DNA of 64,000 bases from an uncultured Planctomycetaceae bacterium (GCA_963785305.1 CAWAUV010000008.1:256001-320000), one strand, 5' to 3'; counted from the stretch's first letter, positions 16,920-36,665 are shown. Notes: generated by a model not told the origin, from the letters alone. Program-made: numbers and translations.

Positions 16920-17062
16920 TGTCCCTCCCGAAAACCCCGTCGGAGGGGAGGGCGATCGGGATTAGCGTCGATTTCGCGAGGTTGGTTTCGGCGGAGCTCA
17001 AGAAAAATCGCCGGCGTTGGAGTAAAAACGGGCCCGGAGGGCCTGTTTTGGCTCATCGGCGC
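16920..17062 (+). repeat. Cassette-delimiting element copy 1 (IS-end-like)
   Basis: TGTCCCTCCCGAAAACCCCGTCGGAGGGG...GGAGTAAAAACGGGCCCGGAGGGCCTGTTTT. Confidence 0.9.
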
Positions 17063-19387
17063 GACGCCGCGATCATCGCCGCTGGAGACAGCGCATCGAC
17101 GACCCCGCTCTTGCCGACGCCCGCCGCGGCATTGACGGTAGCCAACTTGGCGATCGGGGCGCCGAGCTTGCCGAGCCAGCCGGGAACCGACACGTTCTAT
17201 CAGAACGCGATGGACGGCGTGGCCTACGGCTTCTCGTTCCAGCCGCAGACAGCCTACTACGACCCCGGCAATTTGAACGAGGACCTCACGCTAAGTTCCA
17301 CCGAAACCGCCGTCCGCGCCCCGCTCATCTACGATCAAGGCGGCACGAACACCCCAAGTGAAGTCGCCGCCGTGGCGATCATCCCGCCGACAGGCGAAAC
17401 GTACAGTATCGCGAATCTATCCGACGGTGGCGGAAGTGGCGGCGGAACGACCAGCCCCGATGGCGCCATCTGGACGCCATCGGCGGGCGACGTGAACGCG
17501 GCGGCCGTGTTCGATGAACTCGAATCGCTGGTTATGAGCGCCAATCCCAACCCGTCCGCGCCGAATGTTGGTAACCAGATCAATAGCATCCTGGGCGGGG
17601 GAACGGCGTCCTCGGGAGTCGGCGATACCTATGCGGCGACGCAAGCCGGCGGAAACGTTTCGGAACAAATCCTCGAAGCCGACGCGGAAGGAAACGCGGC
17701 GACACAGCCATCGATCGGCTCCAACACAACGCCGGTTTTCGATGGAACGTTGCGATTCTTGCGGCCCGCCCAGGTCTCGCAACTCGAGCAAGGGGGCTAC
17801 AGCGTTCAAACGATCCCGGGGCAAGGGGGGCCTGCCAGCATTACGTTGGTCGCGGTCGTCGACGGGCAGCTTTATCAGCTTTTGTACACGCAAAACAGCG
17901 ACTCGATTTACGCCGCCTATGAACTGGTGTCGGCCCATTCGATCGGTTCGGTGAGCGACTACAGTTCGCTGCAAGAACTCTCGAATGCGATAAGTTCGCT
18001 CAACTCCGCTGAAAACGCCGGCAAGTTGCTCGACCTCTACAAGAGCCAGAACGGCACGCAGACGCTGGACTACTTGCGAATGCTGCCGATCACCGGCACA
18101 ATCATCAACTTCCAAGATGGGAACTACATCGCCGGAACCATCTCGCTCGCCGGCGACGCGCTCTTGGTGCTGCCGGTCGCCCGACTCGGCATCTCCGCTA
18201 CGAACGCCGCCATGGCCGCAGCGAGGGCGGGCGCGACCGCGGAAGCCGCCGCCAAGGTCGGCGCCGAAATTGGTGGAAACGTTGCGGAGAATGTGACGGC
18301 TAGCGCCGCGGAGGCCGAACTCGCGACCGATTCAAGGTTGGCCGGAAACTTTAGTAAAGGCGGTTGCTTCACCGAAGACACGCTTGTCATTGTCCCATCG
18401 GAGGAAGTTCCGCGTGATAACGCACGCGCCGCCACGGCTACCATTGCCGCGACGGCGATCGGCTCGGTGCGGCTCGGCGGCCGCGTGCTGGGCGAGAACC
18501 CGCGTCCCTGGGAATACGACTCGCAATTTCCCGAGCCCGCGGCCGGCCAATGGGTTTGCATTAACGCTCGCGTCAAACGGCCCAACGCGGTTGCGGTGGA
18601 AATCGAACTGCTGCGGCCGCGAGCGTGGGTCGAGGCCAACGGCATCAAGGCGGGAGGCCGGTTTGAAATCAAGTACCCTGAGCTGGGTGTTATCGGCGAA
18701 GCCAGGATTATCTCGCTTTCGGCCTGCCCGCCGATCGCCGCGGGCGACGGCAACGTGGTGATTGGGCGGTTCGTTTCTCGCGAAATCAACAACCTTGTTC
18801 GCTTGCGACTGAGCGATGGCACTACGATCGAAGCGACCGATATCCACCCGATTTGGTCAACGGATCGCCGGGATTGGGTCGCGGCCGGCAAGCTCGAGCC
18901 CGGCGAGCAGGTGGAAAGCTTTGGAGAATTTATTTATGTTGAAAGCGTCGAGCGGATCGGGTATTGCCCCGCGGTTTATAATATCGAGGTGCATGGCCAC
19001 CACGTTTACCGCGTCGCTTCCGTAGGAGTGGTGGTCCATAACGCGGACCCGTTGTCCTGCGCCGCAAGTGTCCCTGGCGCGAGTAATGCCGGTGGCCTTC
19101 CTTGGGCCTCTTGGAATAATTTGCCAAAGGTAACAATTGCTGGCAAAGAGTATGCGAGCATCGGCGGCCGACTCTATACTGAGCACGCAATCGAACGAAT
19201 GATTCCAAGTGCTCTCTCGGGTTACGGACGAAGTGTCGCGCCGGCATTTGTTGAAGAAGCTATTAAGAGTGGTGCTACAACTACTCGTGTTGTGGATGGT
19301 GTGCTACGTACGATTCATACGCTTGGCGATTTAGTCGTAGTGACAGAGGATGGCGGCAAGATTGTTGTTACGGTGATCACGCATTAG
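17063..19387 (+). CDS. Orphan polymorphic toxin A: shared pre-toxin segment + Hint domain + BECR-like (DUF4258/CdiA-CT-like) RNase tip; 5'-truncated
   Basis: DAAIIAAGDS...IWTPSAGDVN shared with B and C; Hint CFTEDT (18365)...HPIW...VYNIEV...VHN (19042); tip GGRLYTEHAIERM..GRSVAPAFVEEAIKSG..IVVTVI. Confidence 0.8.
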   Translation, partial: DAAIIAAGDSASTTPLLPTPAAALTVANLAIGAPSLPSQPGTDTFYQNAMDGVAYGFSFQPQTAYYDPGNLNEDLTLSSTETAVRAPLIYDQGGTNTPSEVAAVAIIPPTGETYSIANLSDGGGSGGGTTSPDGAIWTPSAGDVNAAAVFDELESLVMSANPNPSAPNVGNQINSILGGGTASSGVGDTYAATQAGGNVSEQILEADAEGNAATQPSIGSNTTPVFDGTLRFLRPAQVSQLEQGGYSVQTIPGQGGPASITLVAVVDGQLYQLLYTQNSDSIYAAYELVSAHSIGSVSDYSSLQELSNAISSLNSAENAGKLLDLYKSQNGTQTLDYLRMLPITGTIINFQDGNYIAGTISLAGDALLVLPVARLGISATNAAMAAARAGATAEAAAKVGAEIGGNVAENVTASAAEAELATDSRLAGNFSKGGCFTEDTLVIVPSEEVPRDNARAATATIAATAIGSVRLGGRVLGENPRPWEYDSQFPEPAAGQWVCINARVKRPNAVAVEIELLRPRAWVEANGIKAGGRFEIKYPELGVIGEARIISLSACPPIAAGDGNVVIGRFVSREINNLVRLRLSDGTTIEATDIHPIWSTDRRDWVAAGKLEPGEQVESFGEFIYVESVERIGYCPAVYNIEVHGHHVYRVASVGVVVHNADPLSCAASVPGASNAGGLPWASWNNLPKVTIAGKEYASIGGRLYTEHAIERMIPSALSGYGRSVAPAFVEEAIKSGATTTRVVDGVLRTIHTLGDLVVVTEDGGKIVVTVITH

Positions 19388-19397
19388 AGTAATAAAC

Positions 19398-19667
19398 ATG
19401 GCCATCTATCCTGATATAATACTGGACCTGAAAGTAGCTTGTGCTCGCTATCGTCGACAAGAAATCACTGAGAAGCAACTGCAAGAGCATCTTTGGAAGG
19501 CGGTCCAAGGCGTTGTGGCTCTCGAAGAAAAAGCTCATCGCGCATTTCTCAGGCAGGCCGAAGGCAAGATTGAACTATTGCAATTCACGGTTTCCATCGG
19601 CGAACTTCGCAACGAGGTATCGGCAATCGTGGCTCAGATCGAGGACCACCTTAGTGGATGGCGTTGA
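19398..19667 (+). CDS. Putative immunity protein A (89 aa, helical)
   Basis: Small AT-richer ORF 10 bp after the toxin stop. Confidence 0.7.
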   Translation: MAIYPDIILDLKVACARYRRQEITEKQLQEHLWKAVQGVVALEEKAHRAFLRQAEGKIELLQFTVSIGELRNEVSAIVAQIEDHLSGWR

Positions 19668-19680
19668 TATTGTGGGTTCT

Positions 19681-19772
19681 TGTCCCTCCCGAAAACTCCA
19701 ACCGGGTGGAGCGGGGCGTGGGAGGGCGCGGTTTCGGGAAAGCAGTTTGGGCGGCGCGTCAAGAGATTTTCT
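19681..19772 (+). repeat. Cassette-delimiting element copy 2 (variant subtype)
   Basis: TGTCCCTCCCGAAAACTC...GTCAAGAGATTT; resembles the copy at 26668. Confidence 0.75.
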
Positions 19773-19783
19773 CGCGGGAAAAT

Positions 19784-19885
19784 CAAAGGGGTCAGGACTC
19801 ATTGATTTTGCTGGCGGTTGTTGGTAGGCTGGCGGACATGCCACGAGCCGACGAGCAATTCAAAGGGGTCAGGACTCATTGATTT
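19784..19885 (+). repeat. Two identical 25-bp direct repeats CAAAGGGGTCAGGACTCATTGATTT
   Basis: Copies at 19784-19808 and 19861-19885 with a 52-bp spacer. Confidence 0.85.
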
Positions 19886-19972
19886 CGCCGTTGGCGGCGT
19901 CGGCAACCCCACCGGCGGAACCTAGCTCGCACCCGGTCCGGCCCAGGCCGATTCCAACGCCGACCGCGTCTT

Positions 19973-22380
19973 TTGGTACGGACCGATTCCGACGCGCTGG
20001 CCGACAAGAACGCTTCGCTCTCGGACGACGCCACGCAAGAACAGCTCGGCGCCGCGATCGCCGGCGACGCGCTGGCGTACGTGCAGGCGCTCGCTCCGGC
20101 GGTCACGGCGTCGTTCGAGGCGCAGGGGCAAGCGCAGTATGCTTATGCCCTCGCGCAGGCGAGCGCCATCGAAGAATATCCCAACGGGATTTACGATTCG
20201 AATTACAACGCCGCGATGGCCACGGCGAGCGCGAATCTGCAAACGGCGCTCACCGCCGCCGGAGTGACTTACTCGTCGGCGGAGCTCGCCGCCCGCTCGC
20301 CGCAAGAGACGGCGATCGCCGCGGCCGAAGTCACGGCCGCGGGCCAAATCGCCACGAACATCACCACCTGGCAAGACGCCACCGCGGGCAACGATCAAAC
20401 GCTCGGCGTGTCGGCCGCCGAGGCGGCATTGACCGATGTGCTGAACGACGACGCGACGTACGAGCAGTACGACGTGCAAAGCGCCGTCGATTACAACACG
20501 CTCGCGCAGAACCTCGCGGCCGCGAGCCCGAGCGTTTATGCCAACGAAGGCGCCGTGCTGGCCAGCGCCGCGCTGACCAACGTGCAAACGACCGATAGCG
20601 CCTGGCTGACCCAGCAAACATCGCTGGCCAACGCCGACGAGAGCGAGTCCGTTACGGATGCCGAAGCGCAAGCCGCTCTCTTGGATGCCCAAGCCTCGGC
20701 CGACGCCACGCTCACGACCTCGACCGCCGCCGCCGAGCAATCCGGCGTGGCCGCCTCGCTGGCCGCCGACGCCGCGATCATCGCCGCGGGAGACAGCGCA
20801 TCGACGACCCCGCTCTTGCCGACGCCCGCCGCGGCATTGACGGTAGCCAACTTGGCGATCGGCGCGCCAAGCTTGCCGAGCCAGCCGGGGACCGACACGT
20901 TCTATCAGAACGCGATGGACGGCGTGGCGTACGGCTTCTCATTCGTGCCGCAAACGTCCTACAACGACCCCGGCAATTTGAACGAGGATTTGAACCTCGC
21001 CGCGACAGAAACCGCCGTCCGCGCCCCGCTCATCTATGACCAAGGCGGAACGAACAGCCCTAGCGAAGTCGCCGCCGTGGCGATCACCCCGCCGACAGGC
21101 GAGACATATCAAATCGCGAATCTAGCCGACGGCGGCGGCGGAAGCGGCGGAACTTCCAGCGGAACCGACGGCAACATCTGGACGCCCAGCGCCGGCGACG
21201 TGAACGGCGCGCCGGTGTCCGAGGGCGTCGGCCTGCTTCTCGCGGGCGCGAACTCGGGCGAGGGTTTGCAATACAACAGCGTTGTCGGCGCGGCCCCCTC
21301 GGGGTTCACCGACACCTATGCGGCATCCCAGGTTACCTTCGGGGCCACCGAACAAATTCTCTATGCCGACACGGAAAACAACGCCACGACAACGCCGCTA
21401 GGACCGGCGCCCGACCCGCTCGCCCTGAGTTACAGCACCGCCAAGGGCTTCTTTTCCGTCAGTGGTTCCCCGACCGACGGCGAAACCAACGAGGCGATTT
21501 CGCTCGCTGGGCAAATCGCCGCCAAACAGGCGAAGCTCGAGGCGAACAATCGGTTTCTCGAGTTCTTCGAAAGCCGATCCGTTCCGGTTCTGACCGAGAA
21601 TGCACAACTCACGCAAGAGATCGCTCAGCTTACCAAACAGTTCAACGACAAAGGCTACAATCGGCTCGAGTGGAGCGGAAGCTTCGGACCCGACATCGGC
21701 GGCTATGGCGGGACCGGGTTGGCCGGAGCCCAGTCGATCGCGCGGGGCCTCGTCTCAAGCAACGGCGCCCAGAGCGTCTTCATGGATGAGTTCCTCTTCC
21801 TGTACTCGGCCGGCGGCGTCGGAAAGCTGATCGGCAAGGGCGTGCTCAAAGGCGCGGGACGCGCCTTCGGCGCAGCGCCGGCGAAGATATACTGGCGGCG
21901 GACGCGGCCGAAGCCGGATTGGGAGCAGAGGCTGCAGGTAATTTGGGCGGGCGTGGACTAACCTCGACGGTCGGCGGGGTTCCGATTGACCCGGCCGACC
22001 TCGCCCGAATGAAGGCCGCGTTTGAGAAGAGCGGCGGATCAATCCTGCAGAACGCTGAAATTGATGCTTATCTTCGCTGGAGAGCCGAGCAGATGGGCGC
22101 GAGCAACATCGGTGGCGTAACATATAACGCAAAAGAGATTATATTGCCGACGAATGCGACCCGGACCGCCGTCTTCGAGGAATTCATTCATACGGCTCAG
22201 TTCAAGTCCGGGCGGGTCAATGAGTTGATCGTGAAGTACGGCAACGCGGAGGCCGAGAGGCTATTGGAAATCGAAGCAGCAAAAAAACTCATTCAAAACC
22301 AGAGCGCATGGGCGCTTCCGCAATCCGAAATAGACGCGGTAAGGCAACGCTTAATCCAGCTTGAAAAAGGGATGCCGTGA
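19973..22380 (+). CDS. Orphan polymorphic toxin B: Ala-rich pre-toxin domain + Tox-MPTase4-like zincin tip; frameshift ~21890
   Basis: Shares the pre-toxin segment with A and C; tip has TAVFEEFIHTAQ and LEIEAAKKLI motifs. Confidence 0.75.
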
Positions 22381-22658
22381 ACTATATGAATTTTCAATTT
22401 CGCGTACGAAAAGTGTGGGTAGCGCCAGCGCGACGGTTCATACACATCATCGGGGTAGTCGAAAACGGCGTGGTTGTTCCACCGGTGGTCGCGAGCGTGT
22501 CCGGGCACCCCGGTGCGACGGTTCGTATTTGCTCGATGGCAATTAGTGGATTCGATGCACAAGCGGGCAGACCGCGGGAACTCACCTTTGCCATCAGTGA
22601 ACCTACGATCGATCCCGCCGAGTTGGAAGGTTGTGTCCTGAGCGATGTTCAATCTTAG
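22377..22658 (+). CDS. Putative immunity protein B (93 aa, beta-rich)
   Basis: GTGA start/stop overlap with toxin B. Confidence 0.65.
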   Translation: MNYMNFQFRVRKVWVAPARRFIHIIGVVENGVVVPPVVASVSGHPGATVRICSMAISGFDAQAGRPRELTFAISEPTIDPAELEGCVLSDVQS

Positions 22659-22710
22659 AGCCTATCCAGCGACCAGGGCTTTGAAGCTAGCGTTTTCGTT
22701 GCTGGCGGGC

Positions 22711-22831
22711 TGTCTCTCCCGAAAACCTCATCGGAGGGGAAAACGATCCGGAGTAGGGGCGATTTGGCGGGGTTGGTTTCGGCGGGGCTCAAGAAAAATC
22801 GTCGGGGTTGGCGTGAAAACAGGCCCGAAGG
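22711..22831 (+). repeat. Cassette-delimiting element copy 3
   Basis: TGTCTCTCCCGAAAACCTCATCGGAGGGG...GTGAAAACAGGCCCGAAGG. Confidence 0.9.
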
Positions 22832-25084: not shown

Positions 25085-25097
25085 ATTGCGGTTTGAG

Positions 25098-26657: not shown

Positions 26658-26665
26658 AGACGCCG
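26573..26665 (+). repeat. Cassette-delimiting element copy 4 (degenerate)
   Basis: TGTCCCTCCCAAAAATCAATCGGAGGAG..GGCGATCC..AGTAGG..GGAGCTC. Confidence 0.75.
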
Positions 26666-26667
26666 TC

Positions 26668-26770
26668 TGTCCCCGCCCCTCCCGAAAACTCGATCCGGGG
26701 GAGTAGGGGCGTGCCGGCCCATGGCCCTTCGCAAAATCGGGTTGGGCGTCACTGTCAAGGATATTTGTGA
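26668..26770 (+). repeat. Cassette-delimiting element copy 5 (variant subtype)
   Basis: TGTCCCC..CCCTCCCGAAAACTCGATCCGGGGGAGTAGGGGCG...TGTCAAGGATATTT. Confidence 0.75.
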
Positions 26771-26771
26771 A

Positions 26772-29700
26772 ATGGCGGCCGGCGCGGCTTACGAGTAGTC
26801 GGTCGAGCCGGGTTGGCTCGAGTATGTTTCCGAGAGCGATGCCGCAGGCGTGACCCAGAGCGATGCCCAGGCTTTGGCCGTCAAGACGCAGGCCGTGGCC
26901 GACGACGCGGCGGAATCGCAGTTCGCCCAAGCGGTGGCCGGCGCCGAGGAGACCGAGGCCGAGTCGCTGGCCGACGCCGACGAGGCGGCCTCCGAGTCGG
27001 GCGCCGCGGCCGACGCGGATCGTTCGCTCTCGGGGGTCGAGGCCGAGTCGACGTACAGCGTGGCGGTGGCCCAGGCCACGGCCGCGTACGACAACACGGC
27101 TGCCGGGGCCGAGGCGGCGCAAAGCCGGATCGTGTACGCCGCGGCGATGGCCGATATCGTCGCCAATCCCCAGATGCTGCTCGCTCCGAATCTGGCCGAT
27201 CCCGACACCGCCGACATCGCGACCGTGGACGAGGCGCGCCTCGCCCAGGACCAGGCGCTCGACGCCGCGAATCTGACGTTCACGACCAGCATCGAACAAG
27301 CGATGGTCGCGCGGGCCCAAACGCTGGGCGACGCCGATGTGGCGCTGGCGACCGGGGCGGCCGGCACGCTCGATACCGCCACCAGCGCCGCCGTCGCCGC
27401 GGGCAATGTGTTTGCCCGGGCCGAGGCCGGATTCGCCGGCACGCTGACCGATTCCCAGGCCGGCGACGAGGCGACCGACGAAGTCGCTTATGGCCAGGCC
27501 GAGGTGAACGACACGCAAACGGTCGGCGGCGACCTGACGACGTATGAAAACACGGTGAGCGAGGCGAACGGGACGGAGCTCGTGGCGCTGGGGTCGGCCG
27601 AGGGCACTTATCAGATCAATACGGCCGAGGCGAGCACTCAAGCCGCCGCCTCGGCGGCCAGTGTGGCGCCCGACTCGGCGAATCTGTTCGCGGCGCAGTA
27701 TGCCCAATCGTACGCCGCTTGGGTTAGCGATGTGGCGCCGTCGTACACGGCCTACTGGCAGACGATCGCTTCCACCAATGAAACGGCCGACCAGCAAGCG
27801 GACTCGAACGATGAAACGGCCGCCAATGCTTATGCCCAGGCCGATCTGGCGTATATCCAAACCACGAGCGCCGCCGACGCCACGCAAACCGAAAACGACA
27901 CCGCGGCGGACACGGCGTTCGACGTGGCGGACGTGGCGCTGGCCGGCGCGAGCCAGACGGCGAGCCAAGCGGCGGATGGGGCGTTGCAAGTGGCCGAGGC
28001 GCAAGCGCTCGATGTCTATGGCGTGGCGGCGGCCCAGGCGCAAATGGTTTTGCAAGTGGGCGATGATAGTGGCGGAGGAACCGCTGGCGGGCTCGTTCAA
28101 GCCCAGAACGCGAATTTGGAAACCGACGACGCGGCCCAACTCGCTTTCGACGTGGCCACGGCGGCATACAATGCGGGCGGCGACGTCGACACGTATCAAG
28201 CGGCCGTCGCCACATATTACGCGGCGCTCCAAACCGCCACCGCGACCGAGACCTCCGCCCAGACCACCGCCCAAGCGACGAATGCCACCTCGCTGAGCGC
28301 GGCCGCCTATCAATTGGCCGTCGCCCAGGCGAACGCCACGTATGGCGATGGCACGAGTTCCGGCGACGCCGCTTCCTGGTCGGGCGCCATGGCCGCCGCC
28401 GAATCGACCGCGGCGGTGAGCGAGGCCCAAGCGGTTCATGATCAGGCCGACGCCCTGAATCAAGACGCCAAGGCCGACGCGGATTCGTACGCCAACGCGA
28501 CGTACACCTGGACCGTGGCGTATGACTCCGCCGCCGCCACGGACACGAACCAAGACAACGCCGCCTATGCCGCCAGCGCCGCGCCGCAAGCGCAAGCGCT
28601 CGCTTCGCTCTGGGTGACCCAGGCCGATTGGCAGTCGGCCGTGGTCCAGGGCGGCGAATTTTACCGCCGCCTCGCCCGCGCTCGACGCGTTTCTGATCGA
28701 TCGGGCCGAGACCGAGGCCACTTGGATCGGGCCGGCGGGCGTTGCGTATGTCGGCTACGTGACCGGCGAAACGAGCACCGGGCAATCCGCCGCCGACGCG
28801 ATCACCTCGGCGATTCAAACCGATTCCGACGCCGACGCCCTGGCCACGCGCGACGCCGCGCTGGCCGACGACGGCGACGAGCTCACGGGCGCGAACTCCG
28901 ACATGGCCGCCGCGCTGGCCTTCGCCCAGTCCGACGCCCCGGCCGCGGCGACCGAGCTCGATCAAATGGCGGCGGCCACCGGCGCGTATACCGTGAGCGT
29001 GGCCGCGGCCCAGCAAGCGCTGGCGAACGGCGGGTCGCAAGACGATTACAACACCGCCGTCTCCGCCGCCACCACAACCCAACAATCGGCCAACCAAGCG
29101 GCGATCACCGACTATGCCTTGGCCCAGCTCGCGCTCGAAAACAGCGACACGCTCGCCGCCGCCGGCGCGAACCTCACCGCCGCCGATTCGCTCGCCAGCG
29201 CCGCGAGCACGCTGCAAACCTCGCAAGCCTCGAACGATCAAACGGCGGCTCTGGCGATCGCCGGAGCGATTCACGACGCCGCCGTCTCGAACGCGGCGGC
29301 CGACAGCGGCTATGCCATCGGTCAAGCGACGAGTTGGGACACGGCGGTCGACAATTTGTATGCGTCCGCGCCGAGCGTGTACTCGCAAGAAGCGGCGAGT
29401 CAGGCCGACGCCGCGAAGGCGCAAGTGGTCAGCGTGTCGAACGCGCTCTCGGCCAGCGAGACCACCACCGCCAACGCCAATCAGACGATGGCCGACACGA
29501 CCGCCAACGCCGCCGCGAGTTTGAACACGAGCATGGCGGCGGCGAGCCAGACACTTGCCGCCAACCAGGCGCAGGCAACCTACAACGGAGCGGTGGCGCT
29601 TGTCGCGGCCGATTCGACCGCCGCCCAGTCCGGCGCGGCGACCCCCCAGGGCCTTCCGATGCCCGCCGCCCCGGCGCCGGTGACCGCGGCGAATGTGGAT

Positions 29701-30891
29701 GTCGCGCCACCCACCTTGCCGAGCCGGCCGCCGACCGATGCGTTCAGCCCCACGACCAGCGCCCGGCTGGCCAGCGCCGCAGGCTCGAACGCCCAAGCGA
29801 TCAACCTCACCGGCGCCAGCACCCTGGCCGAAGGCGTAACCCTTTCGCAGACCGAAAACCAAGTCGCCACGGGGCAGACGATCACCGTCTCCCCGCCGAG
29901 CGGCTGGAGCACGGTCATCAATGTCGGCATCGGGATTTTTACAGGCGCGATTTCAGGTGCTCTAGCTGGCGGCACGGTGGGTGGTCTCTTGACAGGCGGC
30001 GCGGGCACGGCCTTCACGGCGATTGCGGGCGGTATCGCCGGCGCTGTCGCCGGCGGCTTCGCGGGTTATAATGCGACGGACGCGACGAGCGCGTTCACGA
30101 GTTCCCTCGGCGCCGGCATCCGGGCCGGCTTCGTGGCCGGCGTGGCGGGAGCGTACGTTGCCGCGGCCGCTTTGCCGGCCACCGCGGGGCTCCTGACGCA
30201 GATGACCGTCGCGGCCGCGGCCGGCGCGACCGCCGAAACCGCGGTTCAGACTTATGAGATCGGCGTCGGCTCGCGCAAAAGCGCCGACAACTTCCAGATC
30301 GCGGTAACCGCCGGCGCGTCCGCCGTCGGCCCGCTCGCCGCGAAAGTCATGTCCGCCGTCGACGACGGAATCACCAATTTAGTCGCCTCGTTCAAACAAC
30401 AAGCCCAGGGGCTCGCGAACGCCACCACGAGCGAAACGGCCAGTCTGAATGCGAATCCCCCAGAAACGGAGCCCCTCGTAACAACGCCCGAGGCGGAAGC
30501 GCAAGCCGCGAATGCGGCAAACAACGCGCCACCGGTAGCGTTACCGGTGAAGCCGCAAGACCCCGACGCCGGCATCTACCCGAGAAGTCCTTTATCAAAG
30601 CCGGTGTCCCCACCGCTTGAGCCCGGTGAATACGTTTATGTACAAGACGCCGATGGCATTGTTCACGTGGTCCCTAACGGCCCGCATATGCATCCGACCG
30701 TTCTTGGTAATGGTCAGCCTGCGGCGGCTGCCGGAGAGATTATTGTTGATGCAAATGGTGTTGTCATTGAAATCAATAATATCAGCGGAACTTTCCAGCA
30801 CGGCGCCAGTGTATTGGATGGAGTTAAAAATGCTCTCGAAAAGGCGGGATTGACCGTGAGCCCGAATGCAATCAATCCGTTTCAGTGGTAA
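26772..30891 (+). CDS. Orphan polymorphic toxin D: long Ala-rich region + glycine-zipper hydrophobic segment + Ntox43-like tip; in-frame TAG at 26796, frameshift ~28680
   Basis: ORFs 26850.. and 28759..30891; GAISGALAGGTVGG zipper; tip YVYV..HPTVLGNG..AAGEI...INNISGTF. Confidence 0.72.
29295..30509 (+). repeat. 1215-bp direct repeat, copy 1 (shared by cassettes D and E)
   Basis: Near-identical to 32000-33214; differences cluster at the 5' end. Confidence 0.95.
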
Positions 30892-30904
30892 AGGCAAGAT
30901 CGAA

Positions 30905-31267
30905 ATGAAATCTTCCGTAATACTGAAACGCGGCCAGCAGCTAGTTGCGATTACATTGGATGCGTTTGAGCTGGACGAGCGAAAGCTCGAATGCAATATC
31001 TCGTGCGAGCCGCGAATCAGCACGAGCAGCGGTGAAGCATATTCGCCGGGCGCCGTCCGCATCTTGTGTCTATCTGCAATGGCATTCGTGCGAAGGAAAT
31101 TAGGGCTTTCTGCTGGCCTAAGATTGTATGTGTCTGAGGTATACGGAATCGTCGACCGTTCTGATGAAGTCGCAATCTGTAACGCCGCAGCTATCGCGAT
31201 TGCGAAATCGCTACGAAATGATGGACGTACTCTGATTGAGAGCCATAGCGGCTGGTGTAGTGAATGA
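30905..31267 (+). CDS. Putative immunity protein D (~120 aa)
   Basis: AT-richer ORF 13 bp after the toxin D stop. Confidence 0.6.
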   Translation: MKSSVILKRGQQLVAITLDAFELDERKLECNISCEPRISTSSGEAYSPGAVRILCLSAMAFVRRKLGLSAGLRLYVSEVYGIVDRSDEVAICNAAAIAIAKSLRNDGRTLIESHSGWCSE

Positions 31268-31301
31268 ATTCAGACTTGTTGTTCCTGTCCCTGTTGTCCC
31301 T

Positions 31302-32000
31302 TGTCCCTCCCGAAAACCCCGTCGGAGGGGAATGACGATGCCGAGTAGGGTTGATTTCGCGAGGTTGGTTTCGGCGCGGCTCAGGAAAAATCGCCGGTGT
31401 TGGAGTGAAAACGGGTCCGGAGGGCCTGTTTTCACTCCTGGGCGCGTGGCCTTCCCTTCGGCGTGTTGGCTGTGGTTGAAAAGCATGGGGGCGCGAGGCG
31501 GCGTCAAGCGGCGCGCATGTAGCGGTGATGGAGGCCGCCGACTTGGGGAATGGATCGCACGGGGCCGCGTTCGGGCGGTTCGACCTCGCGAGGATTGGGC
31601 GGCGTTGCCCTCGAGCGAAAGATGGGTTCTTGAATTGTTGTAGTAGTCGAAGTAATCGGACAGGATGCGTTTCAAGTGGCGCTCGCCGAGCACGATGACG
31701 TGATCGAGACACTCGCGGCGGATCGAGCCGATCAGTCGTTCGACGTACGGATTTTCCCAAGGCGAGCGTGGCGAGCTGACGATTTGTTCGATTCCCAGAT
31801 TCTCGATGCGTCGTTGGAACACTTCGCCATAGATTCCGTCGCGATCGCGCTGCAAGTAGCGCGGCGCCGAATCATAGGGAAACGCTTCGACGATCTGCTG
31901 GGCGGTCCACTGGGCCGACGGATTGGCCGTGACATCGAAATGCAACACGCAGCGCCGATGGACGCTCAAGACGACGAAGGCGTAAAGCACGCGAAAGGTG
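31302..32000 (-). mobile_element. IS remnant: terminus (element copy 6) plus 3' part of an rve/integrase-core transposase (31504-32000)
   Basis: ATFRVLYAF..HFDVT..YLQRDRD.IY..SPWENPYVERLIGSIRRECLDH..GGLHHRY; 5'-truncated and frameshifted. Confidence 0.9.
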
Positions 32001-33214
32001 GCGGCCGACAGCGGCTATGCCATCGGCGAAGCGACGAGTTGGGACGCGGCCGTCGATGGTTTGTATGCGTCCGCGCCGAGCGTGTACTCGCAAGAAGCGG
32101 CGAGCCAGGCCGACGCCGCGAAGGCGCAAGTGGTCAGCGTGTCGAACGCGCTCTCCGCCAGCGAGACTACCACCGCCAACGCCAATCAGACGATGGCCGA
32201 CACGACCGCCAACGCCGCCGCGAGTTTGAACACGAGCATGGCGGCGGCGAGCCAGACACTTGCCGCCAACCAGGCGCAGGCAACCTACAACGGAGCGGTG
32301 GCGCTGTCGCGGCCGATTCGACCGCCGCCCAGTCCGGCGCGGCGACCCCCCAGGGCCTTCCGATGCCCGCCGCCCCGGCGCCGGTGACCGCGGCGAATGT
32401 GGATGTCGCGCCACCCACCTTGCCGAGCCGGCCGCCGACCGATGCGTTCAGCCCCACGACCAGCGCCCGGCTGGCCAGCGCACGCGGGCTCGAACGCCCA
32501 AGCGATCAACCTCACCGGCGCCAGCACCCTGGCCGAAGGCGTAACCCTTTCGCAGACCGAAAACCAAGTCGCCACGGGGCAGACGATCACCGTCTCCCCG
32601 CCGAGCGGCTGGAGCACGGTCATCAATGTCGGCATCGGGATTTTTACAGGCGCGATTTCAGGTGCTCTAGCTGGCGGCACGGTGGGTGGTCTCTTGACAG
32701 GCGGCGCGGGCACGGCCTTCACGGCGATTGCGGGCGGTATCGCCGGCGCTGTCGCCGGCGGCTTCGCGGGTTATAATGCGACGGACGCGACGAGCGCGTT
32801 CACGAGTTCCCTCGGCGCCGGCATCCGGGCCGGCTTCGTGGCCGGCGTGGCGGGAGCGTACGTTGCCGCGGCCGCTTTGCCGGCCACCGCGGGGCTCCTG
32901 ACGCAGATGACCGTCGCGGCCGCGGCCGGCGCGACCGCCGAAACCGCGGTTCAGACTTATGAGATCGGCGTCGGCTCGCGCAAAAGCGCCGACAACTTCC
33001 AGATCGCGGTAACCGCCGGCGCGTCCGCCGTCGGCCCGCTCGCCGCGAAAGTCATGTCCGCCGTCGACGACGGAATCACCAATTTAGTCGCCTCGTTCAA
33101 ACAACAAGCCCAGGGGCTCGCGAACGCCACCACGAGCGAAACGGCCAGTCTGAATGCGAATCCCCCAGAAACGGAGCCCCTCGTAACAACGCCCGAGGCG
33201 GAAGCGCAAGCCGC
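32000..33214 (+). repeat. 1215-bp direct repeat, copy 2
   Basis: Matches 29295-30509. Confidence 0.95.
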
Positions 33215-33602
33215 AAATACGGCGAATGATGCGCCGCCAACGGCGTTGGTCGGAGTCCCGGAAGAGAGCGCCGTTGTTACATTATGGAAAGCGCCACAAG
33301 GAGGGAGACTAAACGCAGCCGGCGAACTGACAGAAGGTTTTGATCCGAGTCAATATCCTGGCGACGGACCATATTTTGCAACCGACAAGGCGATTGCGGA
33401 AGGCTTTCGCGATGCATCGTACGGAAATGGGCTTCAAGAAGTAAACATTCCTCGAGGCATTTTTGATGAACTCGTCGCTAAGGGCATCATACAACCCGAC
33501 ACATTTTACGGGCCGGGACAAGCATGGCATGTACCGCCCGACGGGCTTGCGGAATTCAATGCCGCATTAAAGATGGGGCCGCCGAATGTTTATCATCCTT
33601 AA
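32000..33602 (+). CDS. Orphan polymorphic toxin E: D-type pre-toxin region + putative ADP-ribosyltransferase-like tip; indels ~32305 and ~32485
   Basis: Identical to D up to AEAQAAN, then TLWKAPQ..GFDP..GPYFATDKAIAE..YG.G..EV.IP; ART assignment is tentative. Confidence 0.7.
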
Positions 33603-33633
33603 AATTCGAGCTCATTTTCAATGGAGGGGCTTG

Positions 33634-34146
33634 ATGATTGAGATCGGCGTCGTTGTCAAAGGAATTGTTACGCGAATAGCACCATTTGGGATATTTATGT
33701 CCCATGGCGAAGACTTGGTCTTCGTGCCGCTAAGCAATTTCGCATGGATACCTAATCCCAAAGTAATTAGTCAATTTTATATTGGGCAGGAGAGAGATGT
33801 GCTCGTGGAGAGGCTCAACTACGACAAAAATATCTATACGGGTTCATTTCGACGTTTAGATCCAGAAGGCAATCCATACCGCATCTTGTCTAGATATCCG
33901 CCGTCGGCGACCTTTGATGGAATCGTTGTTATGGTGCATGCGAATGGTTTTACGATCGAGATTGATGGTGGTTGTCGTGGCGAAATATTCAAAACGCCGC
34001 AGAATGAAGATTTAACTAAAGGCGAAAAGGTTCGCGTTCGAATAAAATCTCTGGAAGTCGATGTGCAGAATCTCGTTTTCGAGTTAGTATCCCGTACCAC
34101 CGTCCCTCCCGAAAACCTCGTCGGAGGGGATGGCGATCCGGAGTAG
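33634..34146 (+). CDS. Tandem S1 (OB-fold) domain protein in the immunity position; C-terminus runs into repeat copy 7
   Basis: G.VVKG.VTRIAPFGIFM..VPLSNFAW and DGIVV.VHANGFTIEI..G.RG.I...GEKVRVRIKSLE resemble ribosomal protein S1 repeats. Confidence 0.75.
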   Translation: MIEIGVVVKGIVTRIAPFGIFMSHGEDLVFVPLSNFAWIPNPKVISQFYIGQERDVLVERLNYDKNIYTGSFRRLDPEGNPYRILSRYPPSATFDGIVVMVHANGFTIEIDGGCRGEIFKTPQNEDLTKGEKVRVRIKSLEVDVQNLVFELVSRTTVPPENLVGGDGDPE

Positions 34147-34308
34147 GAGCGAATTCACGGAGTCGGTTTCGGCGGTGCTCAAGAAAAATCGCCGGCGTTG
34201 GAGTAAAAACGGGCTCGGAGGGCCTGTTTTTACTGATCGGCGCATGGCCTTCCCTTCGGCGTGATGGCCGTCGTTGAAGAGCATGGGGGCGCGAGGCGGC
34301 GCGGGTGT
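34101..34308 (+). repeat. Cassette-delimiting element copy 7
   Basis: CGTCCCTCCCGAAAACCTCGTCGGAGGGG... including the extension seen at 31440-31500. Confidence 0.9.
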
Positions 34309-34965
34309 TGTCCCTCCCGAAAACCTCATCGGAGGGGATGGCGATGCGGAGTAGGGTCGATTTGGCGGGGTTGGTTTCGGCGGTGCTCAAGAAAAATCGC
34401 CGGCGTTGGAGTAAAAACAGGCCCGGAGGGCCGGTTTTTACTCCTCGCGCGCGGCCTTGCCGTCGGCGCGTCGGCCGTTGTTGGTGGGACATGGGAACCG
34501 GGCGGCGTCAAGCGGCGCGGGTGTAGCGGTGATGGAGGCCGCCGACTTGGGGAATGGATCGCACGGGGCCGCGTTCGGGCGGCTCGACTTCGCGAGCGTT
34601 GGGCGCGTTGCGGTCGAGCGATAGGTGTGTTCTTGAATTGTTATAGTAATCGAAGTAGTCGGATAGGATGCGTTTCAAGTGGCGCTCGCCGAGCACGATG
34701 ACGTGGTTCAAGCACTCGCGGCGGATCGAGCCGATCAGACGCTCGACGTAGGGATTCTGCCATGGCGAGCGAGGCGCGCTCACCACTTGTTCGATTCCCA
34801 GATTCTCGATTCGTCGTTGGGACACATCGCCATAGATTCCATCGCGATCGCGCTGCAAGTCAGCGCGGCGCCGAGTCATAAGGAAACGCCTCGACGATTT
34901 GCTGGGCGGTCCACGCGGCCGATGGGTTGGCCGTGACATCGAAATGCGCGACGCGGCGTCGGTGT
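34309..34965 (-). mobile_element. IS remnant: terminus (element copy 8) plus 3' part of rve transposase (34508-34965)
   Basis: LQRDRDGIYG..SPWQNPYVERLIGSIRRECLNH..VGGLHHRYTRAA; a diverged paralog of the 31302 remnant. Confidence 0.9.
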
Positions 34966-35610
34966 TCACTCGTAGCGGAAGAGTTGGCCGACGTTGTCAT
35001 CGTCGACCGCCACATGCAGGTACGCGCTGGTGATGCTCACGTTCGCGTGGCCGGCGGCGTCGCGGACTTCGGCTAGCGTGCGGCCGCCGGCCAGGGCGTG
35101 GCTGATGAAGGTGTGGCGGCCGTGGTGGATGGTGAGAGTCGCCAATCGGGCCGGGCCGAGCGACTTGCAGGCCGTTCGGAATCGCTTGCGGAGCGTGTGG
35201 CGCGAGAATGATTTTTCAACGCGGCCCGGCCGGAACGAGGCGACGAACGGTCGCGTGAGTACCGACGACTCGGCGCTGCTCGCTTGTCGATTGATCTTCC
35301 AAGAGGCCAAATCGGCGAGCGTGCCGGCGTCCCACCACAGTGGAACCATTCGCGACCGGCCGCCCTTCGACGCGCCCGTGCGAATGCGGATGTGCGGCCG
35401 GGCAAGTTCCGTGCGCACATCGCCCATTTGCAGATGGGCGATCTCGCTGGCCCGCAGGCCGCAACAGGCGGCCAAACGGAAGAGAATCAGATTCAAGCGG
35501 GTATTCGGCGAACGCGGGGCCTTGCGCTTGAGATCGGCCAGAACGGCGCCGATCTCCCGGCGGGTGAGAATCTTCGTGGCGTCGACTGTTCGGGGGCGAT
35601 ACGTTTGCAT
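34966..35610 (-). CDS. Tyrosine recombinase, catalytic domain only (~214 aa)
   Basis: GLRASE (R), SKGG (K), HHGRH (HxxR), AGHAN (H), TSAYL (Y); no N-terminal core-binding domain. Confidence 0.92.
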   Translation of the reverse strand: MQTYRPRTVDATKILTRREIGAVLADLKRKAPRSPNTRLNLILFRLAACCGLRASEIAHLQMGDVRTELARPHIRIRTGASKGGRSRMVPLWWDAGTLADLASWKINRQASSAESSVLTRPFVASFRPGRVEKSFSRHTLRKRFRTACKSLGPARLATLTIHHGRHTFISHALAGGRTLAEVRDAAGHANVSITSAYLHVAVDDDNVGQLFRYE

Positions 35611-35924
35611 GGCGGGCGTTCCTGCGGGTCGGTGGTTGCTGGGTACGAGTGTCCGGTTCTTCCTTAGCACGGCGCCGCGTCGGGCCGCGTGGACAGTCAG
35701 TACCTCGGGTCTCGCCGGAGCTCAAGCGGGTTCGGACCCAGTTCGCCCAGTGTGGGTCCGAGTTCGCGTAGCCGAGAAGATGTTTGGCCAACAGGCGAGC
35801 CGAAGAATTGCGAGAATTCCGCTTCGCCAGCGCTGGATGTTCTGGGGCAGCTGAGGTAACTGTCGTGACCTGCGTGGCGTCGATGTTCGACGCCCGGAGC
35901 ATTCCGAACGACAGGAGACGAACC

Positions 35925-36269: not shown

Positions 36270-36363
36270 TCCCCGCGGCGCCTTCCCGCTCGACGCCCCA
36301 TAGACCACCGCTTCGCGGCGGCGCCTTCCACGTCGGGGCGTTTTCTCGTTCGACGGTTGGCGT

Positions 36364-36659: not shown

Positions 36660-36665
36660 CTGCCC

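Follow-up and report, generated by a model that had tools for sequence, protein, structure and literature searches.

A planctomycete cluster of orphan toxin tips and putative immunity genes, probably assembled by capture or displacement linked to an insertion sequence end

How did five toxin-like cassettes come to be lined up between a tRNA gene and a tyrosine recombinase gene? The question is raised by a DNA stretch of 64,000 nt (the window) from an uncultured Planctomycetaceae bacterium. The order is tRNA-Leu, five plus-strand cassettes (A to E) with an R element before each, and the recombinase. The left neighbor of the array is the tRNA-Leu gene (anticodon TAG; 16745 to 16826, plus strand; ARAGORN; Rfam tRNA, 57.3 bits). 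Repeats of its 3' end of at least 14 nt were sought elsewhere in the window, and none were found. The 16-mer TGTCCCTCCCGAAAAC occurs in the window in eight copies with up to two mismatches, all on the plus strand (positions 16920, 19681, 22711, 26573, 26674, 31302, 34101, and 34309). The chance expectation was 0.02, and eight copies were reached in none of 100 shuffles. These copies, the tRNA-Leu gene, and the Phage_integrase-family gene bear out the repeat-delimited layout described in a first-pass annotation. Its placing of all cassettes on one strand also holds, as the five plus-strand cassettes have DNA segments in common, and, as it stated, tip and partner open reading frame (ORF) differ in every cassette. 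The partner ORFs abut or overlap the toxin stop codons. The tip and partner stretches have a GC content of 0.52 to 0.57, compared to 0.67 to 0.70 in the stalks.

Cassettes A, B, and C form one sub-family with 72 to 88% mutual identity. The first R copy, an insertion sequence (IS)-end remnant of about 145 nt (16920 to 17063, plus strand), is fused at its inner end to the A stalk, and the A frame stays open backwards through R. The cassette A toxin (17064 to 19387, plus strand) comprises a stalk fragment, a PT-HINT domain (Pfam, 9.2e-07), and a 114-aa tip. Four foreign homologues of this tip were found, one of them named RHS repeat-associated. The tip model (pLDDT 74.8) matched CdiA-CT NC101 (5i4q_A) best, with a Z score of 7.2 and an rmsd of 2.9 Å over 79 residues, values around Z 7 being within the range that the tool calls common. 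The next matches were RelE, YoeB, and colicin E5/D RNases. A BECR-fold RNase is the probable identity of the A tip. The partner ORF (19398 to 19667, plus strand) begins 11 nt past the A stop codon and encodes a putative immunity protein of 89 aa. Complex prediction for tip and partner gave a score of 0.58, compared to 0.02 for the best control; at the mark applied, 116 of 157 solved complexes pass, as do 2 of 215 mismatched pairs, and scores of at most 0.60 account for only 18 of the 157 solved complexes plus both mismatches that passed. Contact agreement across runs was at least 84%, and the partner pLDDT was at least 87. The prediction lends weak support to a complex of the A tip and its partner.

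Cassette B is preceded by an R2-type IS-end remnant (19681 to 19770, plus strand; 83% identical to C8:692449-692543) and by two partial copies of a second, MITE-like repeat of about 80 nt (19775 to 19888, plus strand), which has at least 25 dispersed copies in the genome, on both strands. Among the A/B/C-type stalk copies, that of cassette B (19973 to 21961, plus strand) is the longest, and it has a candidate TTG start. In a search of 5.8 billion proteins, matches to cassette B were limited to the window's own proteins. The B tip lies in another frame (21790 to 22380, plus strand), reflecting an apparent frameshift or a separate ORF, and shares 33% identity over 84 aa (pairwise E value, 0.004) with the very C-terminal end of P0006, a protein of 3341 aa. 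Its partner ORF (22377 to 22658, plus strand; about 90 aa) matched no family in Pfam or other family-profile searches. The R copy before cassette C (121 nt; 22711 to 22831, plus strand) is fused at its inner end to the C stalk. Cassette C (22826 to 25084, plus strand) consists of a stalk fragment (to 23942), a frame change, and PT-HINT (2.7e-17) with a 244-aa tip (23738 to 25084). Its partner ORF (523 aa; 25086 to 26657, plus strand) encodes an N-terminal hydrophobic segment, LRR, and TPR (Pfam) and ends in R-derived codons, an R-like tip at 26573 lying inside its 3' end. LRR genes also come after RHS cassettes elsewhere in the genome.

Cassettes D and E are 99 to 100% identical over 1.23 kb, from about 29300 to 30530 of D, and unrelated beyond, which is a classic constant/tip boundary. 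A tandem of an R-like fragment and an R2 tip precedes D (26573 to 26713, plus strand; 26574 to 26703 is 80% identical to C7:234759-234897). Cassette D (26850 to 30891, plus strand) spans about 1350 codons in two frames (26799 to 28754 and 28618 to 30891) and contains a long Ala-rich stalk, a Gly-rich hydrophobic segment, and a 115-aa tip. It is colinear with the proteins P0003 and P0005. Its partner ORF (133 aa; 30866 to 31267, plus strand) shares its first 26 nt with the end of D. The E constant region has a long copy in D, which lies directly 5' of E. Between them, R with a transposase remnant on the minus strand (31302 to 32010, R on the plus strand) is fused to the E stalk at an imperfect microhomology of about 11 nt. 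Cassette E (31995 to 33602, plus strand) is a copy of D 29300 to 30530 with a 1-nt deletion, followed by an unrelated 118-aa tip. The partner ORF of E (186 aa; 33586 to 34146, plus strand) encodes an S1 RNA-binding domain (Pfam S1, 2.1e-11) and ends in R-derived codons, with an R tip at 34101. A solo R (34101 to 34301) and an R with a transposase remnant (34309 to 34964) complete the array (34101 to 34964, plus strand).

One shared, truncated Ala-rich region had been proposed for all cassettes. Stalk fragments are indeed present, but a single family is not, since D and E share only about 34% identity with the A/B/C group. Nor are the cassettes equally truncated at the 5' end: the B stalk is about 285 residues longer than that of A, and D has about 650 further Ala-rich residues. 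A frame change was found in four of the five toxin frames (B, C, D, and E), leaving A as the sole unbroken one; all five partner ORFs are open. Unlike these four toxin frames, rpoB and rpoC are unbroken in the same assembly. Errors of assembly in the repeated DNA could account for the frame changes. As annotated earlier, no full-length main gene precedes the array, and none with the cassettes' stalk was found in the assembly (9 contigs; completeness, 84.7%). Therefore, the classical picture of a main gene plus orphans is incomplete here. Both this and the position of A upstream of the longer B count against the orphan reading. Downstream on the same strand lie a giant Ig-repeat toxin gene (from 48810 past the window end) and another, much larger cassette array.

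The stalk matched no Pfam or NCBIfam family, in agreement with the reported lack of an RHS, FHA, LXG, or VENN signature. Among 1.84 billion representative proteins, a profile of the B and D stalks found only four foreign ones. Among these four are the 3341-aa protein, which has Big_13 Ig domains, and P0003 and P0004, located on one 1.1-Mb contig, P0004 being a 5'-shortened P0003 paralogue with a different C-terminus. Weak stalk matches were obtained in 6 of 400 other genomes of the order. One match lies within a 5597-aa Ig-repeat protein and one within a stalk/PT-HINT protein (2132-aa open frame), and one of these genomes holds an array of at least nine cassettes. Upstream of a similar array in genome G169, no giant gene was found in the 12 kb read. 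Judged by these searches, the stalk is very rare and is carried in relatives inside giant Ig-repeat/stalk/PT-HINT toxins, so the class is of a known kind with an unnamed carrier. The earlier proposal of an undescribed toxin class was thus overstated, the Ig-repeat/PT-HINT giants being a known architecture. Its polymorphic-toxin reading of tips and partners is supported by PT-HINT in A and C (Pfam) and by the RHS-associated homologue of the A tip. The polymorphic-toxin survey of Zhang et al. 2012 reportedly describes the PT-HINT (Pfam PF07591) architecture class. As in such toxins, a Hint-type pre-toxin domain directly precedes the variable tip in A, C, and the relatives in genomes G008 and G169. 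In contrast, PT-HINT is absent from B, D, and E, D and E having the Gly-rich hydrophobic segment instead, and the Ala-rich stalk upstream is unnamed.

Analysis of the R elements revealed their relation to insertion sequences. Pfam identified rve_3 transposase fragments on the minus strand at 31214 to 32014 and 34511 to 34996, and R runs on into the 3' end of an rve_3 transposase in five copies. The outer tip is sharp and common to all copies; the inner ends vary, giving lengths between 30 and 1100 nt. A sub-type, R2, is present at B and D; it has the 16-nt tip in common with the others and diverges beyond it. As in the IS481/IS3 group, the associated transposase has rve/rve_3 domains and the terminus starts with TGT. 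Unlike in that group, no intact copy or second end was identified, and the best NCBIfam scores (IS481, 70.7 bits; IS3, 65.7 bits) are far below the curated cut-offs of 224 and 160, respectively. By these comparisons, R is a non-coding terminus left by an IS481/IS3-like insertion sequence that has decayed. An intact copy of its transposase was not found in the assembly. The surviving end, in more than 30 solo pieces, is solely that downstream of the transposase gene; a search for a second, inverted end bounding the units gave 10 matches in 34 windows, which equals background. R was not found in the 32 other genomes of the family. The junctions of A, C, and E lie at short microhomologies of roughly 2 to 11 nt, each different, and at the examined junctions a toxin frame lacking its 5' part directly joins the inner end of R.

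Matches to RHS, PT-HINT, and the stalk together cover 4.5% of the genome, and 29 of the 36 R tips, representing 11 of the 15 loci, are no more than 3 kb away from such a match (locus-level binomial P = 1.7e-12). A twelfth locus carries an RHS+TNT toxin (Pfam). At all 12 toxin-associated loci, R is co-directional with the cassettes (sign test, 2.4e-4), and the truncated toxin frame begins at or near the R inner end. An R2-junction-RHS unit was found identically at two distant loci, with homology beginning exactly at the tip. These results uphold the suggested link to a mobile-element end, and the genome-wide search that had been proposed placed most copies of the element beside toxin cassettes, not scattered without such a link.

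We consider it probable, at roughly 60%, that the region is an orphan tip/immunity cluster built via IS-end-linked capture or displacement and is not integron-like. The cassettes would descend from a Pirellulales family of giant surface toxins, of which only 3' pieces in two sub-families are left. Judging by relatives, the full architecture would start with Ig-like repeats at the N-terminus and continue with a long, helical, Ala-rich stalk, in many cases the self-cleaving PT-HINT domain, and a variable toxic tip, with an immunity gene downstream. The pieces may have accumulated by the known route of tip displacement and capture, in which a fragment with part of the constant region, tip, and immunity gene would be integrated and older tips would be pushed into silent positions. 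At its 5' boundary, each fragment would have been joined independently through microhomology, the toxin constant region meeting the interior of an IS481/IS3-like end, so each cassette would have an R cap with its outer tip next to the preceding immunity gene. As direct repeats in the same orientation, the R caps could act as portable homology to add, delete, or move cassettes. At present, the array probably serves mainly as a store of putative immunity genes plus silent, partly decayed tips. The location of the junctions always in the IS interior, and always at the same IS end, is unexplained by IS-end-linked capture.

This reading is based in part on a comparison with orphan rhs-CT/rhsI and cdiA-CT/cdiI arrays. 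In the available portions of the reports on these arrays (Jackson 2009, PMC2935791; Poole 2011, PMC3150448; Koskiniemi 2014, PMC3967940), co-oriented fragments retain a portion of the constant region without signals for initiation or export and have unrelated tips followed by small immunity genes (putative here), and identity falls sharply at the constant/tip boundary, as in the array described here. The same portions propose tip displacement via circular intermediates for rhs (PMC2935791) and mention IS sequences as sometimes present in orphan rhs/cdi arrays (PMC3150448). In contrast to those arrays, the carrier here is neither Rhs nor CdiA, the stalk having no RHS repeat, VENN motif, or other Pfam family; two sub-families are mixed, and no full-length main gene stands in front. 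Furthermore, the same IS-end remnant caps every fragment in one orientation and is also present on RHS and PT-HINT orphans at other places in the genome. So regular a cap is not described in the available portions of the literature on these arrays, nor did further searches reveal a description.

R might instead be a working recombination handle in an active, IS-end-guided cassette system, a homology-based analogue of the integron. Circles containing R, junction, truncated constant region, tip, and immunity gene would be cut out between flanking R copies or between the IS interior and a toxin gene, and they would re-insert at any resident R, through either a RecA-dependent crossover between R copies or a transposase acting in trans, making tips portable between any carrier families. 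In line with this, R caps three unrelated carriers (Ala-stalk, PT-HINT/Ig-giant, and RHS) in one orientation, and the array mixes two sub-families. Solitary R-cassette units that are identical from the tip inward adjoin housekeeping genes (groESL and acyl-CoA dehydrogenase). The R tips lie -84 to +53 nt from immunity stop codons, and extra TGTCCC units occur just 5' of 10 of the 36 tips, against a background of 0.3%. However, the lack of an intact transposase copy in the assembly, the absence of a second R downstream of the solitary units, and junctions that differ between cassettes and resemble illegitimate deletions make this reading rather unlikely.

It is improbable that the arrays are simply expendable DNA gathering decaying mobile elements, with an R-cassette link of no mechanistic meaning. 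IS66, Mutator, and ISAZ013 transposases, several near-identical group II introns, and the MITE-like repeat also occur in the arrays, and the broken toxin frames would fit such decay. But under random insertion, both orientations, both IS ends, and intragenic positions would be expected, and only one end is seen. The uniform orientation, the position of the R tip at the 3' end of immunity genes with the R interior fused to the toxin frame, and an enrichment far above the genome share of toxin regions argue in the same direction.

Very doubtful, too, is a working multi-toxin battery in which B and D, perhaps also A, are complete, expressed stand-alone toxins, e.g., released in a bacteriocin-like manner. 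B and D start at homologous stalk positions with TTG/GTG candidates and might be complete stand-alone genes. A 257-nt stretch covering the B upstream region and first 18 codons is 92% conserved at a second locus, and similar sizes are found for P0003 (917 aa, starting with M) and the G169 proteins (open frames of 759 to 1124 aa). However, the stalk consists of repeated units, so the common start positions may only reflect the repeat period. Moreover, the frame changes before the tip in both B and D, family-profile searches for a signal peptide or known export domain found none, and where the context of a relative is clearest, the protein is a giant.

The recombinase at the right end (34969 to 35610, minus strand; Phage_integrase-family gene, 34969 to 35721) is a Xer-like tyrosine recombinase of 214 aa without an N-terminal core-binding domain. 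Orthologues with up to 80% identity were found in 45 of 400 other genomes of the order, often in multiple copies or at contig ends, the conserved DNA unit being the gene plus about 160 nt upstream. None of 29 sampled orthologue loci had a stalk or PT-HINT match within 1.5 kb, at odds with the suggested role of the recombinase in building the array. A HARE-HTH neighbor was present at 3 of these loci and a homologue of the ORF at 37208 to 38002 at 5, and the conserved neighbors are on the side facing away from the array. In this genome, the gene is single-copy, compared to more than 10 loci with R-capped arrays. From this distribution, the recombinase appears to belong to an unrelated mobile module; it would be an integrase or invertase-like gene of a small module that arrived beside the array, with no role in cassette exchange. 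Integrons likewise have one-orientation cassettes separated by a hairpin-containing repeat, but here the repeat is IS derived, variable in length, and joined by microhomology. The rAID-1 elements of Bacteroidales, as far as the available part of their description goes (Ross et al., bioRxiv 10.1101/471110), likewise combine co-oriented orphan immunity or toxin-remnant genes, repetitive intergenic sequences, low-GC cargo, and a XerD-like tyrosine recombinase at one end; that recombinase is located at the 5' end, is co-directional, and has close homologues confined to that context, whereas the one described here is convergent at the 3' end, with no orthologue near cassettes at the sampled loci, and the repeat is an IS end. 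A site-specific system of the integron or rAID type, in which the tyrosine recombinase would insert and excise cassettes at R acting like attC, is suggested by the surface likeness of co-oriented cassettes, a repeat with a hairpin at each boundary, and a Xer-like recombinase at one end, but is largely refuted and hardly credible given the homology of R along its length to a DDE transposase element end, its variable inner boundary without a fixed crossover point, the absence of an IntI-type integrase (40.7 bits against a cut-off of 265 on the integron-integrase model), the truncated, convergent, 3'-located recombinase, its cassette-free orthologue loci, and the other R-capped loci of this genome, which lack such a gene.

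Thus, IS-end-linked capture or displacement remains the preferred reading. The R-capped pattern recurs at other toxin loci of this genome and may show how toxin libraries are built.

Analysis of the array at window positions 16920-35610 revealed eight copies of the 16-mer TGTCCCTCCCGAAAAC with at most two mismatches, all on the + strand between 16920 and 34324; 0.02 copies were expected, and none of 100 shuffles reached eight. The array starts next to a tRNA-Leu gene (16745-16826), and repeat finding combined with six-frame reading identified five + strand toxin tip/partner cassettes (A to E), each preceded by the repeated element R. On the minus strand, Pfam detected rve_3 transposase fragments (31214-32014 and 34511-34996) and a Phage_integrase-family gene (34969-35721), the latter followed by HARE-HTH and Doc/Fic genes. 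These results indicate that the repeat-delimited layout from tRNA to recombinase, described in the first-pass annotation, is real. The region upstream contains the tRNA-Leu gene and housekeeping genes and no full-length main gene, in agreement with the earlier statement that no parent gene precedes the array; the sole cassette located behind a longer copy is E, which follows D. The Doc/Fic gene, an apparently frame-shifted large serine recombinase gene and a DUF2924 gene occupy positions 36660-37055 and 38146-40655, further right of the array, and several mobile elements are therefore stacked there. A scan for promoter-like sites (7 versus 4.8 expected) and terminator-like sites (25 versus 23.9 expected) in the array was uninformative, apart from a hairpin in R that it flagged on both strands.

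Comparison of the cassettes revealed a constant region followed by divergent tips. Over 1.23 kb (approximately 29300 to 30530), D and E share 99-100% identity; beyond this stretch they are unrelated. A, B and C are 72-88% identical up to the motif DGNIWTPSAGD(V/I)N and diverge after it, their common part consisting of an Ala-rich stalk and a Pro/Gly-rich segment. Such an abrupt switch from a constant region to unrelated tips among paralogues is characteristic of polymorphic toxins. The single shared Ala-rich domain proposed earlier has to be modified in that the constant region exists but falls into two subfamilies, A/B/C and D/E, which are only about 34% identical to each other. Pfam detected the pre-toxin domain PT-HINT in A (9.2e-07) and C (2.7e-17) and not in B, D or E. 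RHS repeats (PF05593) were found neither in the five cassettes by Pfam nor at C8:272-291 kb (contig C8 of the same assembly) by the own-genome scan, and the conserved region has no RHS signature, as noted before. A, C and E begin within the stalk, immediately behind R and without initiation signals; they are 5'-truncated fragments that keep part of the constant region, as is typical of orphan cassettes. B and D are far longer. The frames of B, C, D and E each contain one frame change, which in E is a 1-nt deletion relative to D. These breaks are probably real rather than assembly errors, which may occur in repeated DNA, because this assembly has intact reading frames for rpoB (1250 aa) and rpoC (1475 aa).

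Each toxin frame is followed by a distinct partner ORF that starts a few bases from the toxin stop or overlaps it, and all five partner ORFs are open. The putative immunity proteins comprise 89 aa, approximately 90 aa, 523 aa, 133 aa and 186 aa for A to E, respectively; the 523-aa partner carries LRR and TPR repeats and a hydrophobic N-terminus, and the 186-aa partner carries an S1 domain. The GC content of the tip/partner stretches is 0.52-0.57, versus 0.67-0.70 in the stalks. None of the tips matched a Pfam or NCBIfam family, and comparison with PDB chains gave no sequence match below an E value of 0.006. Toxins of different carriers are repeatedly followed, in the immunity position, by LRR proteins whose N-terminus is hydrophobic (window 25086-26657; fetched locus L061, 3636-4631 and 12450-13280; C8:343485-344150 and 361788-362615); these are unusual putative immunity candidates.

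Four foreign homologues share 40-62% identity with the A tip, and one of them is named "RHS repeat-associated protein". The structural model of the A tip (pLDDT 74.8) best matched the E. coli NC101 CdiA-CT (VIA Z 7.2 with an rmsd of 2.9 A over 79 residues; Foldseek E 0.022). RelE, YoeB, BrnT and RNases of the colicin E5/D type ranked next, with Z 4-5.4. The model suggests a BECR-fold RNase, which serves as a lead only because Z values of 7-8 are common for a best match. The predicted complex of the A tip with its 89-aa partner scored 0.58 (best control, 0.02), graded as weak support. In this test, 116 of 157 solved complexes and 2 of 215 mismatched pairs attained that mark, with just 18 of the 157 solved complexes, plus both passing mismatches, at 0.60 or below. 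Contact agreement between runs was at least 84%, and the pLDDT of the partner was at least 87. The out-of-frame B tip aligned to the last 100 residues of the foreign stalk protein P0006 (33% identity over 84 aa; pairwise E 0.004).

The stalk matched no Pfam or NCBIfam model. When B was compared with 5.8 billion proteins in a word-indexed search, the two proteins of the window were the sole matches, and in the ESM Atlas B gave a best score of 0.80 and no usable lead. A B/D profile was then run exhaustively over 1.84 billion representatives (threshold E <= 0.001) and detected six proteins, two of them from the window and four foreign. P0003 (917 aa) and P0004 (653 aa) are encoded on the same 1.1-Mb contig, P0004 being a 5'-shortened paralogue of P0003 with a different C-terminus, and P0005 is a partial protein from a Pirellulales MAG. 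P0006 (3341 aa) consists of an Arg-rich N-terminus, Big_13 Ig-like domains, approximately 2300 Ala-rich residues and a C-terminal region. The genome and metagenome collections yielded no usable related loci for P0004, nor did the metagenome collection for P0006. Weak stalk matches were present in 6 of 400 other genomes of the order. In G106 the match lies within a 5597-aa open frame whose first half consists of Ig-like repeats (ASH, HYDIN and DUF1573 types), in G008 within a stalk/PT-HINT protein (2132-aa open frame) preceded by Ig-domain frames, and in G169 in an array of at least nine co-oriented stalk/PT-HINT cassettes. In the window's own assembly, the profile matched the array at 16920-35610 only, plus a 24-residue 5' remnant at C8:339563. 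The AF2 model of B residues 1-476 (mean pLDDT 45) contained three long helices of middling confidence (residues 2-275) and nothing confident beyond. No N-terminal trafficking or secretion domain was found in the array; the relatives have Ig-repeat N-termini. The foreign giants and the stalk/PT-HINT relatives thus identify the constant region as the helical stalk of a rare giant Ig-repeat/PT-HINT toxin family. Of the possibly undescribed toxin class proposed in the first-pass annotation, what holds is that the stalk is unnamed and very rare; the architecture of its relatives is of a known kind.

Analysis of the R copies revealed that R is a non-coding IS end of approximately 213 nt, located behind the stop codon of a DDE transposase (rve/rve_3). 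In five copies, R continues into the transposase coding sequence (window 31302 and 34309, C8:378807, C7:32392 and C5:485887). The best NCBIfam models for the transposase were IS481 (70.7 bits, cut-off 224) and IS3 (65.7 bits, cut-off 160). With both scores below the cut-offs and no second terminal inverted repeat found, the element works like an rve-type DDE element and is at most a putative member of the IS481 or IS3 family. No intact IS copy was found in the assembly; the fullest one, on C7, carries a frameshift and adjoins a group II intron. All R copies share a sharp outer tip, and their inner ends lie from approximately 30 nt to 1.1 kb inward. A subtype, R2, found at B and D, resembles R at the tip and at positions 102-202 and differs in between. 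R was not found in the 32 other genomes of the family, in which weak matches to the transposase coding sequence alone occurred in four. Extra TGTCCC units, one or two within 40 nt upstream, were present at 10 of 36 R tips (background 0.3%), among them all three of the fullest IS copies. Counted as TGTCCC(T) immediately outside the tip, these copies have one to three additional units, for example at window 31279-31301, C8:378790-378806 and C7:32393-32410. The units may belong to the true terminus or be left from a nested insertion. R as a common start codon or leader peptide was rejected: the open frame leaving R differs between copies, and with no single reading frame passing from R into the cassettes, R gives no common start.

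The first-pass annotation had asked whether copies of the element adjoin toxin cassettes genome-wide, and most of them do. The genome contained 43 motif matches, of which 36 were kept as R tips after reading of the flanks; seven two-mismatch matches without further R homology were excluded. Toxin regions were defined by the own-genome matches to RHS_repeat (75) and PT-HINT (32) and by the stalk matches, padded by 3 kb. They cover 4.5% of the genome and include 29 of the 36 R tips, and 11 of 15 R loci (tips clustered within 30 kb) fall into them (binomial p 1.7e-12). At a twelfth locus, C7:1613-1621 kb, Pfam detected an RHS+TNT toxin and further cassettes. No toxin was recognized by Pfam at the remaining three (C5:300551, C8:1305202 and C4:241446); the sequence directly after C5:300551 appears RHS-like by eye.

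At the toxin loci R is co-directional with the cassettes, and the toxin frame, taken from stop to stop, starts at or near the inner end of R, as in the fetched loci L060 (3481 and 10837), L061 (12368 and 3445), L062 (3598), L063 (3418), L064 (10863), L065 (3684) and L070 (3403). R is frequently preceded by a small ORF or an LRR gene, and the R tips of the window are located from 84 nt before to 53 nt after the stops of the partner ORFs. Short imperfect microhomologies mark the junctions of A (approximately 2-6 nt), C (6-8 nt) and E (approximately 11 nt), and the three junctions differ from one another. One unit of R2, junction and RHS sequence occurs at two distant loci, C8:125644 (minus strand), beside groESL, and C8:692454 (+ strand), beside an acyl-CoA dehydrogenase gene; homology between them begins exactly at the tip and extends for approximately 880 nt. 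A second tRNA gene adjoins an R2 copy and an RHS fragment at L068:3333-3419, which echoes the tRNA-Leu/R start of the array.

Downstream of the array, a giant gene on the + strand extends from window 48810 to 64000 and on to C8:321928; its more than 5300 codons are spread over three frames. Its Ig domains are of the He_PIG, Big_9 and cadherin-like types, and PT-HINT is found at the C-terminus. It is followed by a second array of approximately 55 kb (C8:322-380 kb) with at least 20 PT-HINT cassettes and six more R copies. The giant gene and this second array represent the normal arrangement of a main gene plus orphans, located 13 kb downstream of the first array. The first array works like the orphan arrays of Rhs and CdiA systems; unlike these, it does not follow a full-length main gene, and it is neither RHS nor CdiA. 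A second repeat of approximately 80 nt, with the core AAAGGGGTCAGGACTCATTGATTT, occurs at window 19775-19888 and in at least 25 places in the genome on both strands, including sites directly upstream of several cassette frames of the second array (C8:332264, 344810 and 348180). Window 19777-20027 is 92% identical to a 257-nt stretch at C8:339451-339707, which spans copies of this MITE-like repeat, the upstream region of B and the first 18 codons of B. This stretch is the 5' remnant of a B-type gene inside the second array.

The adjacent tyrosine recombinase had been considered as the agent that built or shuffled the cassettes. The protein (214-234 residues) consists of the catalytic domain only and has no N-terminal domain. 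Its best models were generic Xer types (57-62 bits, far under their cut-offs). This genome has one copy of the gene, located at the 3' end of the array and convergent with the cassettes. Orthologues, all equally short and often multi-copy or at contig ends, were found in 45 of 400 other genomes of the order, with identity of up to 80%, including across families. DNA conservation around the recombinase was restricted to the gene and approximately 160 nt upstream (34965-35785). None of the 29 fetched orthologue loci contained a stalk or PT-HINT within 1.5 kb on either side; a HARE-HTH gene was present in three and a homologue of the window ORF at 37208-38002 in five. Among the six genomes with stalk matches, only G106 carries the recombinase near a toxin gene (one of its three copies, approximately 15-18 kb away). 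The absence of cassettes from the 29 loci, their own conserved neighbours and the isolated case of G106 therefore assign the recombinase to a separate, small mobile module right of the array, and recombinase-driven shuffling was rejected on these grounds and on the low score against the integron-integrase model TIGR02249. An integron requires an IntI-type integrase, divergent from the cassettes, whereas the recombinase here scored 40.7 bits against a cut-off of 265 and is convergent at the 3' end; attC is a fixed recombination point, whereas R is an IS end whose inner boundaries are variable and joined by microhomology. In rAID-1 clusters, the recombinase is located 5', co-directional and XerD-like, with close homologues confined to such arrays, a combination not found here. 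The array is neither an integron nor a rAID-1 cluster. The short recombinase, patchily distributed in the order and sometimes accompanied by a HARE-HTH gene and a 265-aa ORF of no known family (window 34969-38002; fetched loci L029-L057), has the appearance of a small, previously undescribed mobile module.

Several group II introns, nearly identical to one another and equipped with RT ORFs (Rfam group-II-D1D4-6, 145-149 bits), occur inside or beside R-capped toxin arrays (L060:6573-8468 and 12807 onward, L067:3903-5800, L068:1360-3257 and C7:29401-30795). Retro-copying by these introns as the source of 5'-truncated R was rejected; it leaves the 5' loss of the toxins unexplained, and intron-R distances are varied. 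Units bounded by an inverted R tip were discarded with 10 matches in 34 downstream windows of 8 kb against a background of 0.31 per window. A tRNA-integrated island with att repeats was dismissed, the 3' end of the tRNA not being repeated (>=14 nt) elsewhere in the window.

Within the array, each immunity gene is followed by R, read from its tip to its interior, the junction, the truncated stalk of the next cassette, its tip and its immunity gene. A single crossover integrating a circle of R, junction, truncated stalk, tip and immunity gene would yield this topology. A circular-intermediate displacement model has been proposed for rhs (Jackson 2009, PMC2935791); the difference is that the joint of the circle here would connect the IS interior to the toxin gene. 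Such a joint could arise by illegitimate recombination between the toxin constant region and an IS just downstream of its immunity gene, which fits the junctions because they are microhomologous and different in each cassette. Judged by sequence, the succession of D and E appears to reflect the latest capture event. Integration might proceed through stalk homology, the classical route, or through homology between R copies; the latter would explain the mixed subfamilies in one array and the solitary R-capped units at housekeeping loci. Both circle formation and integration are steps that we infer. The present benefit of the array would most likely be immunity, because all immunity-type ORFs are open and four of the five toxin frames are broken. 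Orphan immunity genes are protective in the cases of cdiI (PMC3150448) and rAID-1 (bioRxiv 10.1101/471110).

An unnamed, very rare Ala-rich stalk, used by giant toxins of Pirellulales, is defined by this locus, as are five tips that belong to no known family. Also new is the capping of orphan cassettes from three carrier families (Ala-stalk, PT-HINT/Ig-giant and RHS) by one and the same IS end in a fixed orientation; the literature search, which covered sources in part, found no description of such a cap, and one may still exist. Should this tag be only debris, the locus would amount to an orphan cluster in ordinary decay. Alternatively, with a probability of roughly one in four, a single IS end acts as a general cassette cap for tip/immunity units of any carrier, which are re-inserted at other copies. 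Units would be excised with a piece of the IS end and re-inserted by homologous crossover or by a trans-acting transposase, and orphan arrays would grow and exchange cassettes in an integron-like manner without a site-specific recombinase. The junction tag, one IS end in one orientation joined by microhomology, marks orphans of three unrelated carriers in one genome and, being recognizable, makes the assembly step directly testable. Orphan toxin/immunity arrays are widespread; how they are assembled is considered unknown (Poole 2011) or covered by a hypothetical model with circular intermediates (Jackson 2009). If the IS end does serve as a general cap, it would provide a concrete assembly mechanism for orphan toxin libraries, a point not settled in the Rhs/CDI papers.
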